Shown in pieces: positions 5,736-46,379 of a stretch of 64,000 bases of DNA. Below the pieces are notes generated by a model. The model saw nothing but the letters and a program-made list of their open reading frames with translations. It ran no database searches and was not told the DNA's origin. Numbering within the stretch: the stretch's first letter is position 1; every line of letters starts with the position of its first letter. Source of the DNA: an uncultured delta proteobacterium (lineage in GTDB: Bacteria > Desulfobacterota > Syntrophobacteria > Syntrophobacterales > Syntrophobacteraceae); the NCBI GenBank assembly GCA_963808625.1, contig CAWEHK010000025.1, positions 1 through 64,000 on the forward strand, written 5' to 3'. Position numbers and translations under genes: made by a program.

Positions 5736-7139
5736 ATGAAAGAGACTCTGCTGGTTGTCGATGACGAACAAGATATGCTGCAGCTTCTGAAAAGGACCCT
5801 GGAGCCGGACCTGGGCTGCACGGTGGAAACGGCCATGTCGGGAGAGGAGGCCGTTCGCATGGTCCAGGAACGACCGATCAACCTTATCCTGGCCGATATC
5901 AAAATGCCGGACATGGACGGTCTGGAACTGCTGAACCACGTCCGCAGGGAGCATCCCTGGCTCACCGTGGTGCTGATGACCGCCTACGGCCGCATCGAGC
6001 TCGCTGTCCAGGCCATCAAAGCCGGGGCCTATGACTTCATCACCAAACCCTTCGATCATGACGGGCTGGTGCTGACCTTGAGCAAGGCACTCGAGCGCAG
6101 TCGCCTGCTCCGTGAAAACCTGCGGTTGCAGCGCTGGGTTCAGGAGGAATCGGCGTTTCAGAACCTGGTGGGAAGAAGCCGGGCGATGCAGCGCGTCTAC
6201 GAAGCCATCCAGATGGTTGCCAAAACCGATCTGACCGTGCTCATCACCGGTGAGTCGGGCACCGGCAAAGACCTGACGGCGCGGGCCATTCACGCCCTCA
6301 GCGGCCGCAGTCGCCAATCCTTCGTGGTGGTCAACTGCCCGGCGGTGCCGGAAAACATCCTCGAGAGCGAGCTCTTCGGCTACCGCAAAGGCGCCTTCAC
6401 CCATGCCACGCAGAACAAGATCGGACTGTTTCAGGAAGCCCACGGCGGCACCATCTTCCTGGACGAAATCGGCGACATCAACAACCCCATTCAAACGAAA
6501 CTGCTGCGGGTCTTGCAGGAAAAGGAGATCAAGCCGCTGGGAGACACCCGCTCAATCCACGTCGATGTGCGGGTGGTCGCTTCCACCAACCGTAATCTTG
6601 AAGAAAAAATCAGGCGCAGCGAATTCCGGGAAGACCTCTACTACCGCCTCAATGTCCTGCCCATCGTCCTGCCGCCCCTGCGCGAGCGGCGGGAAGACAT
6701 TCCGCTCCTGGTGGACCATCTTCTTGCCAAGCGCTGCGCGGAGCTCGGCAAGCCGCTTAAGACCGTTTCTCCCGAATTGATGAATCTCTTCCTCAAGCAT
6801 CCGTGGGAGGGCAATGTGCGCCAGTTGGAAAATATTATTCTGCGAGGAATCCTGTTCGCCCCGCGGGAGCAGATTCGCCCTGAAGATGTGGGGTTCGGCG
6901 AGGCTTCCAGGGGCGGCGTTGCCCCTGCGGTGGACAACGACCTTCGGCAACGGCCCTATCGTGAAGCCAAAGAAGACGCGTTGCGCCGGTTTCATTCCGA
7001 ATACCTGCGAAGGCTGCTGGAGGCCACGCACGGCAATGTGAGTCAGGCCGCTCTGCTGTGCGGCCTCGAGCGGCAGGGGCTGCAGCAGATTATGCGACGC
7101 TACGGCATCAGGGCGGAGGAGTATCGGCAATATTCTTGA
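5736..7139 (+). CDS. Sigma54-dependent response regulator (NtrC/AtoC family)
   Basis: Receiver domain, Walker A GESGTGK, GAFTHA variant of GAFTGA, C-terminal Fis-type HTH. Confidence 0.96.
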   Translation: MKETLLVVDDEQDMLQLLKRTLEPDLGCTVETAMSGEEAVRMVQERPINLILADIKMPDMDGLELLNHVRREHPWLTVVLMTAYGRIELAVQAIKAGAYDFITKPFDHDGLVLTLSKALERSRLLRENLRLQRWVQEESAFQNLVGRSRAMQRVYEAIQMVAKTDLTVLITGESGTGKDLTARAIHALSGRSRQSFVVVNCPAVPENILESELFGYRKGAFTHATQNKIGLFQEAHGGTIFLDEIGDINNPIQTKLLRVLQEKEIKPLGDTRSIHVDVRVVASTNRNLEEKIRRSEFREDLYYRLNVLPIVLPPLRERREDIPLLVDHLLAKRCAELGKPLKTVSPELMNLFLKHPWEGNVRQLENIILRGILFAPREQIRPEDVGFGEASRGGVAPAVDNDLRQRPYREAKEDALRRFHSEYLRRLLEATHGNVSQAALLCGLERQGLQQIMRRYGIRAEEYRQYS

Positions 7140-39891: not shown

Positions 39892-40793
39892 TTACTCCGA
39901 CTCCCTACTCCCTACTTCTACTGCTTCTACTCTCTCACTCTCTACTCCCCTGCCTCTGATCCAGGTCCCCGTCTGGGTATAGCGCTGAGTGACGGCCTTG
40001 AGCTCTTTGCGCCGTTCCAGGAACTTCTCCTTCATCCCCTGCAGCCACCGGGCATGGCGTTCAACACCCTGGTAGCTTAAGAACAGGGGATGGTCACCAG
40101 GTGCCGTGTGAACCTCGAGGCCTTCCTCCGCGCACCGGTAATGACCCGAACTGCTGCAAAGCATGCATCGAAGCCGGCCGTCGCCCAGGAAACGAAAGGT
40201 ATCTCCCCCACAGAGGGGACAGTGCGGAATTGTCCGATCAACCGCCGCGTCCTTCTCCTGGAGTACTTTTGCCAGACGCTGAGCCGCGGCGGCCCCGTCA
40301 CCTTCAAGGAAAATCTCACCGGGAAGAGCGCCATAGACGACGGCGGTGCCCCTAGATCCCCGAAAGTAAGTTTGACAAAGCTTTCCACAGCAAGCTTGGT
40401 ATACCCTTCCATGCCCGTGATGCCGGCAATGGCAACCCCCACCGCGGGCTTCCCCCAGAGCCTGTCGAGATGAGCATAGAAGGCGAGCCCCCGGTCCAGA
40501 AAGCGCTTGAGACTGGCGTTTGGCCCCAGCAGGTACGTCGGCGCAGCAACCACATAGGCATCGGACTCGATGAGGGCCTGCAGGACCACCGCAAAGTCGT
40601 CATCCTGGCGGCACTGCATTTCTCCAAAAAGACACTGGTAGCAGGCCCGGCACGGTCGAATATCCAACTCGGGAAGCCGCACGAGGGTGAGCCTCCACTC
40701 GCCCGTGAGCTGCCGGTAAAGCTCCTTGATAAAGAGTTCCGAGTTGCCGAATTTGCGGGGGGAGCAGACGATGCCTAAGAGGTCCTTCACCAT
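39892..40793 (-). CDS. Flavodoxin-like / iron-sulfur flavoprotein family protein (frameshifted)
   Basis: SPRKFGNS, CRACYQC...C, APTY. Confidence 0.82.
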
Positions 40794-41104: not shown

Positions 41105-41140
41105 AAAAAAAAACTAACCGGCGGGGCTAGGACCGGTTAG
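41105..41140 (-). terminator. Rho-independent terminator
   Basis: Minus strand CTAACCGG-11 nt-CCGGTTAG followed by T9. Confidence 0.85.
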
Positions 41141-41175
41141 CTTTTGAGGAGGAAAGAGTTGGTTTCTCTTGTCGC
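41105..41175 (-). ncRNA. Candidate ~70-nt sigma54-dependent small RNA
   Basis: Sits between a perfect -24/-12 promoter and an intrinsic terminator with no ORF; 5' hairpin AAGAG/CTCTT followed by TCCTCCTC. Confidence 0.6.
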
Positions 41176-41185
41176 GTTATGATTA

Positions 41186-41201
41186 AGCAAGAACGATGCC
41201 A
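41186..41201 (-). promoter_or_regulatory. Sigma54 (-24/-12) promoter
   Basis: Minus strand TGGCATCGTTCTTGCT; GG-N10-GC spacing exact. Confidence 0.75.
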
Positions 41202-41372
41202 TGTCATCACCAACTTCCCAATTTTCTCTTCGACGCGCATTACTCAACACTCCCACGGGTAACTGCCGGTTACAACCCAAAACCCTAAATCCCGCCTTTT
41301 TGAACTATTCCCGCCACAATCCCGCCATATCCCGCCATGCCCGCTGAGCTATCCGGCTAATCTGTCTGGTTT

Positions 41373-42621
41373 CTACAGGTGCCGGCCGCCATCAGTTCCC
41401 TGAAAGAACGCCCCGTATTGCGCAGCAATAATCCGCCAGTCATATCTTGTCTTTACAAAATCCCTGCCAGCCTTCCCCAAGGACAAACGAATTGCCGGAT
41501 CGTCGAGCAGGTCGATGATTTTTTCGGCCAGCGCGCCGGAGTCCTTTGCGGGGACGATGAGACCGGTTTTACCGTCCACAATGATATCACGCATGGCGGG
41601 AAGGTCCGTAGCGATGACTGCACATTCGCACCCCATGGCCTCGACCAGAACCAGACCGAAGCCTTCCTGATCGCCATCCCGGCCAACAATGGAAGGAAAG
41701 ACCACAATCTCGGCTGCCTGGTACAGTGCAGGAATGTCCGTGTTCGGAACGGCGCCAAGAAATCGAACATGCCGTTCCAGGCCAAGCGCAGCGACAAGCC
41801 GGCGAACGGCTTCCTCTTCGGGCCCACTTCCGGCAATGGTCAGGCTGGCCGCCGGGTGTTTTTCCAGAACCATCGGCATGGCCCTGATAAGGTAGGGCAG
41901 CCCTTTCTTTTCGACCAGTCTTCCCACAAACAGCAAAGACTGCTTCCGCCGCCTGCCTGATTGCGCGAGAAATCGCCCTTCCAGATCGACCCCCATAGGG
42001 ATGACACGGATCTTGTCACCATCAGCACCCATGGCAATCAACCGCTCCCGCATCACTCGGCTCACCACCGTAAGACCGCTGCAGGACGCGACGATAAAGC
42101 CGCTTGAGGCCCTCCCAGATCGACCCTCTGAGGGCAAACAGGTCAGCGCCATGGGAGGTACAAAGGACGGGCGCCGAAACGCGAGCGATCCTGACCGCAA
42201 GGACCGCCGCCAGACCCTGAGGAACCAGCCAGTGCGCATGAATAAGGTCGAATTTTTGCCGGCGGAGCATGAGTACAAGGCTGACCAACTGAGCGCAAAG
42301 AAAGAAGGGCACCAGGCCATAGCACCAGGGTTGTCGCCTCAGATTGGCGAGAATTCCTCCTCCCCCCTGTTCGCTGCCGTAGGCCAGCACCTCGCCTTTC
42401 TCCCAAAAGTACCGGAAGCGATGAACCGCCAGCCCGTTGAGCTCTTCCTTCGCTTTTGCACCCGGCGCATGAGGTGAAAGAACGTGTATCCGGAAGGCAC
42501 CGCGGAGCCGGCAACAGAGTTCAAATACAAAAGGAGGGTCTCGGTCATTATGCCACCTGGGAAAGGTGGACGTCAGGACCAGGACGCTTTTGATAGAAGA
42601 AGACGAGGGCTGCGAATTCAT
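41373..42621 (-). CDS. GT4 glycosyltransferase (frameshifted)
   Basis: LTSTFPRW, HAHWLVPQG, VGRLVEKKG, EGFGLVLVEA. Confidence 0.92.
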
Positions 42622-42680
42622 GGAGGTTGCCGGCACCAGCATTGGAAATGGATGATAAAACCGGATGACCGGACCGCTTG

Positions 42681-44163: not shown

Positions 44164-46225
44164 TAGAGGAGTCCAGGGTTCGCTGCAATTCCTCGAGATC
44201 GGTTATCGGACTGCGGCAGGCCCGGTCCTGACAGAGGTAAACCGTCGGCTGACGGTCGCCTGGCCGCAGATTCTCGGTATATGGGGCCAACGCAGCCAGT
44301 TTCCCGGCATCGTCCTCCCTTCCGCGAAACATCAAAACCCGATTGGGCAGGAACGCCGTATGCACGGCCGCAACCATTTTCCGCGTCGTTTCCTCATCGG
44401 GGTCTCCGGCAATCACGATTTCCTGGCCGGGCCCCAGCGCAAAGTCCACCGCGTTGAGGAATTGCGTGTACGCGGAAGGGAAGTCCGAAACGAGGTGGAA
44501 AAAGGCCCTGAATAAGCGCTCGGCCTTTTCCTCCCAGGCCGGTATTCCCCGTCATCCGGGCCAGGCGCAGGAGATTCAGCGCCGCGATGGAATTGCTCGA
44601 GGGCACGGCGCCGTCATAGATTTCCTTGTCCCGCACAATCAACTGCTCTCCGTCATGAGCCGTATAATAGAAACCACCCTCCTGCTCATCCCAAAAGAGC
44701 TCGAGCATCAGTTGTTGAATGCGGAGCGCCTCCTCAAGATAACGCACCTCGAATGCCGATTCATAAAGCTCAATGAGGCCCCATACCAGGAACGCGTAAT
44801 CATCCGCACAGCCCGGGTGGGCCACATCCCCATGGCGGTAGCGCCGAAAGAGCTTACCGGAATCCCGGCGCAACGAACCGAGGATGAAATCCGCTGCGCG
44901 CACCGCAGCCTGAAGGTGGCGAGGGTCGTGCAAGGCCTGATAACCCTTTGCCAGGGCCGCGATCATGAGTCCATTCCAGGACGTCAGAATTTTGTCATCC
45001 TTCAGGGGATGAAGGCGTTGCTCCCGCGCGGCGAAAAGCTTCCTGTTTGCTTCTTCGAGGACGCTGCCGAGTTTTTCCGCATCCATCCCGACCTCCCACT
45101 GCCCCGCGGCAAAAGGCCTCAGGACATGGGCAATACTCAGGCCGTCTTCAAAGTTTCCTTCCGGGCTGATGTCATAGAAGCGGCAATAGATCTTACCTGC
45201 CTCTTCCCCCAGAACAGCTTTGACCTCTTCCGGCTTCCAGACATAAAAGAGACCTTCTTTCCCTTCGCTGTCTGCATCCTCTGCCGAGTAGAACCCTCCC
45301 AGGGGGTCCGTCATATCACGGAGCACATATTCGATAACCTCCCGGCAAGCCTTCTCATAGGCCGGCTTCCGGGTGACTTGAAAAGCCTCCGCGTAGACCA
45401 TGGCAAGCATCGCCTGATCGTAGAGCATCTTCTCGAAATGCGGCACGAGCCACCTTTCGTCCACGGAATAGCGATGGAATCCGAAACCGACCTGATCGAA
45501 AATCCCTCCATGATGCATGGCGTCAAGGGTTTTTTCCACCATCGCAAGCGCTTCCGATCCGGGGTTGCGGCGGTGCCATCGCAAAAGGAAGGTAAGGTGA
45601 TGCGGACTGGGGAATTTCGGGGCCGGGCCAAAGCCGCCCCACCGCGAATCATACCTCGTACGGAGCTGTTTGTAACCCGTGTCGAGATCCGTTGAACCGA
45701 AGACTCCTCTCCAGTTGCCTGCGACTTTTTCGGCTGGATCGCCTTCGTGATCTCTTCGCCTGCTTGAAGTACCTTGGCGCGTTGGTTCTGCCAAACGTGG
45801 GCCAATTGCAGGATGATGTCGATCAGGCCGGGCATCCCCTGCCGGGCGGACTTCGGGAAATAGCTGCCGGCGAAGAAGGGCTTCCGGTCAGGAGTCATGA
45901 AGATGGACAGCGGCCAGCCTCCACTTCCTCTAAGCGCCTGGCATACCGCCATATAGATATGATCGACATCGGGACGTTCTTCCCGATCTACCTTTATCGA
46001 CACGAAATAGCGGTTGAGGAGCTCCGCTACTCCTTCATCTTCAAATGATTCTCGCTCCATGACATGGCACCAGTGGCAGGTGGCATAGCCAATGGAGAGG
46101 AAGATGGGTTTGTCTTCGGCTGCCGCTCTCTGAAATGCCTCTTCTCCCCAGGGGAACCAATCCACGGGATTGTTGGCATGCTGCAACAGATAGGGGCTCT
46201 TTTCCCGGCTGAGACGATTGGGCAT
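44144..46225 (-). CDS. YyaL/SSP411-like thioredoxin-domain protein (two frameshifts)
   Basis: [36 protein letters not shown]. Confidence 0.93.
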
Positions 46226-46379
46226 GGCATCCACTCCTTTCAACGTCAACGAGCTCCAATGAAAAAATGGAGGGGCAGAGCTTTGTTTCCCTTCCCTCCT
46301 CCAGGGTTTCCGCTCAGAAAGGATGGGTAAGCAGGCTGGACGGCTGCCGAAATGCCATGCTGCCCAAATATGGAAGGTC

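Follow-up and report, generated by a model that had tools for sequence, protein, structure and literature searches.

A candidate sigma54-driven small RNA conserved in Syntrophobacterales and its predicted pairing with a porin mRNA

The small RNAs MicF, MicC, MicA, RybB and VrrA repress porins, and MicL represses Lpp. Mic-type RNAs are associated with Hfq and driven by sigmaE, OmpR or sigma70. The pair of MicC and ompD is the subject of PMC11347162. According to the consulted sections of PMC5568312, Pxr of the Nla19-Pxr system in Myxococcus xanthus is a 108-nt RNA with a sigma54 promoter and three stem-loops that controls development. In Desulfovibrio vulgaris, four sigma54 ncRNAs are placed under DVU0653, DVU0679, DVU1419 and DVU2359, and the consulted parts of the two reports give no targets for them (PMC4641369, PMC3333781).

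The locus described here lies in a 64,000-nt stretch (hereafter, the window) from an uncultured delta proteobacterium of the Syntrophobacteraceae. An earlier note on this DNA had proposed an unannotated enhancer-promoter-sRNA unit acting by Shine-Dalgarno (SD) pairing, a prediction now supported comparatively by conservation, covariation, repeats and porin complementarity, with all elements lying where the note had placed them (Table 1). The expected RNA of about 70 nt without an ORF measures 71 nt, ends in a hairpin and T9, and folds with z = −3.6, none of 200 shuffled sequences being equally stable. The strict −24 consensus of sigma54 promoters is TGGCAC; the −24/−12 element that had been called perfect is present as TGGCATCGTTCTTGCT but deviates from this consensus by one base. 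Sites matching TGGCA[CT]N5TTGC[AT] number 15 in the 4.8-Mb genome. The supposed four to five CCCGCC copies resolve into four full copies (starts at 41291, 41310, 41321 and 41331) and a partial fifth, and the repeat unit, although real, is an 11-12-bp ATGGCG[GTC]GATT read on the RNA strand rather than (T)CCCGCC. The 5' hairpin AAGAG/CTCTT folds in the window copy but is not a conserved feature of the family. The anti-SD seed is borne out by comparison, and the conserved 13 nt of CUCUUUCCUCCUC reach beyond the anti-SD core.

Table 1. Coordinates of the predicted elements and neighbouring genes in the window, with sibling RNA candidates elsewhere (G, genome; C, contig; L, locus).
Feature	Position	Strand	Remark
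Enhancer, four ATGGCG[GTC]GATT-type direct repeats	41287..41338	−	Candidate winged-helix activator sites
sigma54 −24/−12 promoter TGGCATCGTTCTTGCT	41186..41201	−	Predicted +1 at 41175
Predicted ~70-nt small RNA, ORF-less, 71 nt	41105..41175	−	Fold and conservation
Weak 5' hairpin AAGAG/CUCUU	41154..41170	−	Predicted for window copy; poorly conserved family-wide
Seed CUCUUUCCUCCUC	41146..41158	−	Complement of GAGGAGGAAAGAG, extended SD of porin and HU mRNAs
AAAAGCUAACCGG, 5' strand of terminator stem	41133..41145	−	Predicted duplex extension onto (G)UUAGCUUUU of own-family porin leaders
Terminator loop UCCUAGCCCCG	41122..41132	−	CUAGCCCC is complement of GGGGCUAG; predicted second contact
Intrinsic terminator, stem and U9	41105..41145	−	Two-sided changes at 8/11 pairs
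GT4 glycosyltransferase, C-terminal part, upstream neighbour	41373..42320	−	Adjacency to RNA not conserved
NADPH-dependent FMN reductase family, downstream neighbour	40077..40793	−	Common beside main copy, absent beside many others
Sibling RNAs, own genome	G000:C17:14204-14282; C51:22917-22990; C52 near 14101	−; −; +	
Sibling RNAs, other loci	L271, L274, L279, L280, L289-L291, L294, L296, L298 (two), L300, L320		

The promoter-seed-terminator unit occurs in 71 copies in 49 of the 52 genomes of the order, with one copy in 30 genomes, two in 16 and three in 3; promoter and seed are kept order-wide, a condition that the earlier note had set. Promoter, seed, C-rich loop and U-tract are all present at 71 of 72 loci fetched; the exception, L049, has no promoter match. 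The unit was not found in three genomes that possess the activator and the porin discussed below (G021, G045 and G049). Of the 71 copies, 67 carry the 13-nt seed CTCTTTCCTCCTC unchanged. When promoters were parsed at 60 loci (3 failed to parse), the element was present at 56 of 57, and 50 of these 56 are separated from the seed by 28-32 nt; rpoN was present in all five genomes tested. Across 56 distinct homologues, 96% of cells keep the terminator paired, and 8 of its 11 pairs show two-sided changes; for the 5' hairpin the figures are 78% and one of five pairs. The G and CCC columns of the terminator loop are invariant in the homologue alignment.

A blastn search of 60 relatives gave strong matches across the order and missed the sister-order homologues, which were found only via the activator gene. 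In a phylum-wide search with an RNA model, strong matches were confined to the order, and the weaker ones mixed true relatives with chance. Named records among the model matches included Syntrophobacteraceae, Syntrophobacter, Desulfoferrobacter, unclassified deltaproteobacteria and one titled Desulfarculales, from which we infer that the host order of the family is Syntrophobacterales. A loose pattern scan of genome contigs, covering 11 of 64 parts, returned at least 119 loci; 100 were model-scored and 18 were strong. The description of the RNA as unannotated agrees with Rfam, where the window RNA had no match (the best was SNORD82 at E = 7) and 12 homologous and sibling loci gave none at gathering score. 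No description of it was found in the open-access literature, nor in the consulted portions of PMC10102598 and bioRxiv 10.1101/803072. As for RNA chaperones, Hfq was above the cut-off in 0 of 61 genomes, with one weak match, and ProQ was found in 0 of 5.

Expression data consisted of assembled contigs only, which show neither starts nor levels; 23 runs were listed and 7 distinct runs were mapped. At locus L009, contigs of X1 and X5 span the whole stretch and are uninformative, and X16 does not reach the RNA. At L014, a 78-nt contig of run X9 has its first base at 1527, the predicted +1, no listed X9 contig covers 1337-1526, and further contigs continue beyond the terminator; X12 and X14 had no contigs mapped there and X10 had one partial piece. 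The X9 contig was not counted as evidence because contigs lack starts and levels and only one run is involved.

The enhancer motif ATGGCG[GTC]GATT was found at 284 sites in 78 loci, against 35 on the opposite strand. Spacings between repeats peak at 11, 20-22, 30-32 and 40-42 bp, 11 bp being the commonest (91 pairs); in the window the repeats start at 41338, 41328, 41317 and 41298 on the minus strand, at spacings of 10, 11 and 19. The window cluster scores top among 64 clusters in the genome (62.8 vs 48.7 for the next) with a matrix that was trained on the RNA loci themselves. An IHF site in the spacer was considered and found unconvincing (10 of 83 loci vs 6.2 in shuffles). As a separate observation, 7-bp units of the ATTTCGG/ATGTCGG/ATGGCGG type stand in tandem at several places across the genome (G000:C50:92718, C51:6536, C39, C12 and C42).

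The host genome encodes about 22 sigma54 activators. The candidate activator is a receiver-AAA+-winged-helix protein on contig C33 (G000:C33:128148-129722(-)), whose gene adjoins that of a membrane histidine kinase (G000:C33:129802-131316). It has no Fis tail and gave reciprocal best hits in six of six test genomes, judged on partial activator sets. Its tail is predicted to fold as a winged helix (pLDDT 95.5); the best fold matches were the Fic C-terminus, MarR and DsrD, all at E > 0.001, and the Pfam match to DIP2311-like_C was weak and below the cut-off. This C-terminal domain is present in 52 of 52 genomes of the order and, beyond the order, in 8 of 9 genomes from the same class. We take the tail to resemble the C-termini of RecG/ATP-binding-like genes, a label assigned by sequence. 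The NtrC-type gene at 5736 of the window, which the earlier note had named as one possible activator, has no winged-helix tail and was a reciprocal best hit in no more than 4 of the 6 partial test sets; the C33 protein is the likelier choice.

The arrangement in sister orders bears on this assignment. In all seven genomes with a strong match, out of the eight non-order genomes that have the domain, the stop codon of the activator gene is followed by three to five tandem 11-bp repeats, a sigma54 box and a seed-bearing RNA. The repeats are ATGTCCGGATT, ATGGCCGGATT and ATGGCGCGATT, the last occurring exactly in G052, and the RNAs carry an AAC(U/C)CUUU..CUCCU seed and a CCCC loop. Within the order, the activator gene lies beside the RNA at none of the ten loci examined. 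Among 25 further top-match loci whose activators have a Fis-type tail, 10 have an adjacent promoter and pyrimidine-rich RNA; a GT(A/T)(C/A)AAA-type palindrome (e.g., GTACAAAAATTTGTAC) is present in 8 of these 10, and the direct repeat is absent from all 10. The type of binding domain and the geometry of the enhancer change together, winged helix with direct repeat and Fis-type domain with palindrome, which makes the C33 protein the likely activator; on these comparative grounds it very probably activates the promoter of the window RNA.

One RecG/ATP-binding-like gene, with a winged helix similar to that of the activator, has ATGGC(A/G)CGATT repeats lying across its 3' end (G000:C6:19510-19780); it points to a possible donor family of domain and site, a hint at the origin of both. 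Tentatively, and with more doubt than confidence, we sketch a history in which an ancient module of kinase, activator and sRNA exchanged, in the class ancestor, its entire code for DNA recognition, a winged helix from a mobile RecG/Fic-like gene and its 11-bp repeats replacing the Fis helix-turn-helix and palindrome. The RNA gene would then have left the activator and duplicated, and its RNA would capture porin mRNA with no known chaperone, making contact first through the loop and thereby opening its own terminator stem.

Among the predicted targets, the mRNA of an outer-membrane porin stands first. Exact seed complements in relatives fall in the leaders of one such porin in 13 of 50 fetched regions; against NF033939 the protein gives E values of about 1e-25 to 1e-28 on 200-residue pieces and stays below the whole-protein cut-off. 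In the host genome the leader of the NF033939-like porin (C24:62003) has the best duplex energy of 6655 candidate starts, ahead of the next by only 0.6 kcal/mol, and is fifth by co-folding among the top 300. Among 816 starts it ranks first both by seed plus stem and by seed plus loop (−55.4 vs −48.4 for the next). The seed and stem form a predicted duplex of −35.3 kcal/mol with this leader, and the loop an 8-bp duplex about 52 nt upstream of the start codon.

An extended SD is retained in the porin leaders of 46 genomes. Immediately ahead of it, most leaders of family f1 also retain (G)TTAGCTTTT, the complement of the 5' stem strand of the RNA; this stem extension is absent from the f2 and f3 leaders. 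GGGGC occurs 25-75 nt upstream in 36 of the 46 leaders, compared with 6.1% of 816 starts in the host genome, and is absent from the other 10, including all six of f3, although the f3 RNAs keep the loop. When cognate RNA-porin pairs of 42 genomes were compared with shuffled pairs, none of 5000 shuffles was as good for seed plus stem, also within families, and 4-6 of 5000 (first copy) or 41-64 of 5000 (best copy) were as good for the loop, kin among these genomes not being independent. In f2 the loop reads CAGCCCC, and GGGGCTG is found in six of seven leaders with a parsed RNA; in f1, TAGCCCC copies mostly face GGGGCT(A). The f1/f2 loop change is essentially a single event, and loop-edge mismatches occur in some copies (G009, G014 and G019). 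From this complementarity, the RNA quite probably represses translation of the porin, and the GCCCC of the terminator loop is likely a second pairing arm.

The porin ORF of the host is frameshifted in the assembly (G000:C24:62003-63600), as are the glycosyltransferase (window 41373-42642) and a DUF255 gene (window 44394-46249); the porin frameshift and the split window ORFs together suggest assembly indels. In many porin leaders GGAAAGAG occurs a second time, some 20-35 nt ahead of the SD (L304, L305, L307, L308, L316, L331, L339, L349 and L357), a possible extra seed site.

The reading that we consider likely on the comparative evidence is a two-component system acting through sigma54 on a stand-alone sRNA, which would repress porin mRNA by two-site pairing. 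The C33 membrane histidine kinase would phosphorylate the adjacent receiver-AAA+-winged-helix protein, which, to judge from the sister-order linkage, would bind the 11-bp direct repeats and activate the −24/−12 promoter. The elements present in the sequence predict an RNA of about 70 nt, made from 41175 to the U-tract. Its GCCCC loop, complementary to GGGGC of the porin leader, would bind there, and the seed, joined in the own family by the 5' stem strand, would cover the SD up to the AUG and block translation. Porin synthesis would then fall and, by analogy with Mic-type RNAs, lower outer-membrane permeability.

A seed of the anti-SD type will pair with every strong ribosome-binding site, and the RNA might instead be a broad regulator of many strongly translated mRNAs (HU, an Lpp/OprI-like lipoprotein, secreted proteins), with the porin one among equals. 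Just one other site in the host genome, the ribosome-binding site of HU, is perfectly complementary over all 13 nt, and at least 12 perfect pairs are found in 22 of the 30 closest HU leaders, compared with 6 of 1299 background starts; full complements also occur in lipoprotein leaders at L303, L306 and L376. However, in families f2 and f3 HU pairing shrinks to 6-12 nt, a pattern search found no such lipoprotein in the host genome, and the conserved loop and stem sequences are explained by the porin alone. HU may, moreover, belong to other RNAs. Sibling candidates of about 70 nt (Table 1) share the CUUUCCUCCUC seed and have a GGAAAG/CUUUCC 5' hairpin and a C/U-rich terminator loop, with promoters that are sigma70-like, not sigma54; two of them (L274 and L289) had no Rfam match. 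These siblings may be HU regulators, and could account for part of the conservation of target sites. We consider broad regulation unlikely, and HU mRNA a likely secondary target of the porin-directed RNA by its predicted pairing.

Four further genes of the host (G000:C8:193584, C8:195072, C23:10499 and C50:71953) can form 12-13 perfect pairs with the seed region of the RNA, and three of the four begin with what looks like a signal peptide. Family f14 (L185, L187, L188 and L204) has an RNA candidate with a seed-like CTCTTT(C/T)CTCCTC, lacking a sigma54 box and divergent from a small conserved gene.

The C/U-rich single strands could also serve as a decoy or sponge for a protein factor or other RNAs instead of binding mRNA. 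The near-invariance of seed and loop, the sharing of the seed with sibling RNAs and the lack of detected Hfq and ProQ in the genomes searched would fit this role, but sibling seeds are identical rather than complementary, a GGA motif, as needed for CsrA-type titration, is missing from the RNA, and cognate porin leaders track changes in the RNA sequence. This role is very improbable beside porin repression.

Co-oriented genes flank the window RNA, and a reductase homologue is found at 23 of 80 annotated loci, as would be expected if the element were only the terminator of the glycosyltransferase operon, an outcome the earlier note had named as fatal to its proposal, or a leader or attenuator of the downstream FMN reductase. 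Against this, promoter, enhancer and seed travel as a set to unrelated sites, whichever way the neighbouring genes face, and in sister orders the unit sits behind the activator gene; we give this reading hardly any credence. Because neighbouring genes and their orientations vary between loci, and the frame on the opposite strand has no constant length, the RNA gene is taken to be free-standing, and the locus is almost certainly a conserved stand-alone small-RNA gene. It agrees with the class of sigma54-dependent sRNAs in its conserved −24/−12 promoter at fixed distance together with rpoN, in its intrinsic terminator, absence of a conserved ORF and independence from neighbours, and, by comparison only, in its putative upstream activator sites and cognate enhancer-binding protein. 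A small peptide encoded on the opposite strand (GAGGAGG then TTG) has a practically negligible chance, since a start codon follows the SD-like word at 55 of 83 loci but is missing at the other 28, ORF length is unconstrained (2 to 40+ codons), and both promoter and terminator are oriented for the other strand. A link to PEP-CTERM/PrsR, raised by the neighbouring glycosyltransferase, was rejected because that gene context is not conserved.

For the Syntrophobacterales that live by syntrophy or sulfate reduction, this is a first candidate riboregulatory circuit in which signal path, RNA and target are all named, so that each link is directly testable. It suggests Hfq-free control of a porin through two-site pairing that uses the terminator, and offers a natural experiment in which the DNA-binding fold of a sigma54 activator and its enhancer geometry (palindrome as against 11-bp direct repeat) changed together.

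Among known systems, Qrr and cuckoo-type CCUCCUCCC RNAs are set apart by the lack of a match to their Rfam models. The D. vulgaris sigma54 ncRNAs are alike in belonging to the same phylum and in being driven by sigma54 with an enhancer-binding protein (PMC4641369, PMC3333781, in the parts consulted). The sites of DVU0653, DVU0679 and DVU2359 are palindromic in the consulted part of PMC4641369, compared with 11-bp direct repeats here, so that, judged on these three sites, the window RNA does not share an activator site with that group (e.g., Dv_sRNA2). The DNA-binding domain of DVU3305 resembles that of the Fis-type orthologues, a likeness by domain only; unlike the window system, DVU3305 binds TGTTGC-N5-GCAACA and controls protein operons. 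A literature passage on DVU3303-3305 deals with mutants under chlorate. That a sigma54 activator can bear a winged helix has a precedent in the DVU0151 orthologues; DVU0151 itself differs in regulating transport genes as a one-component protein.

With Nla19-Pxr, as far as the consulted sections of PMC5568312 describe it, the locus shares a sigma54 promoter, paralogues and a host without Hfq, and also, in sister orders only, an sRNA gene downstream of a sigma54 response regulator. This position directly behind the regulator was found in 7 of 7 sister-order genomes and at 0 of 10 loci in the order. Unlike Pxr, the window RNA has one conserved hairpin instead of three stem-loops, a predicted porin target and no match to the Rfam model. 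The likeness to Mic-type RNAs lies in complementarity to a porin translation start and in a predicted seed pairing with an outer-membrane protein mRNA that would, by analogy, stop its synthesis. Unlike these RNAs, the window RNA is sigma54-driven, has no sequence-family match and no Hfq found in its host, and apparently uses its terminator loop as a second arm. The RNA is arranged like Nla19-Pxr, would work like the Mic-type RNAs, and is a member of neither.
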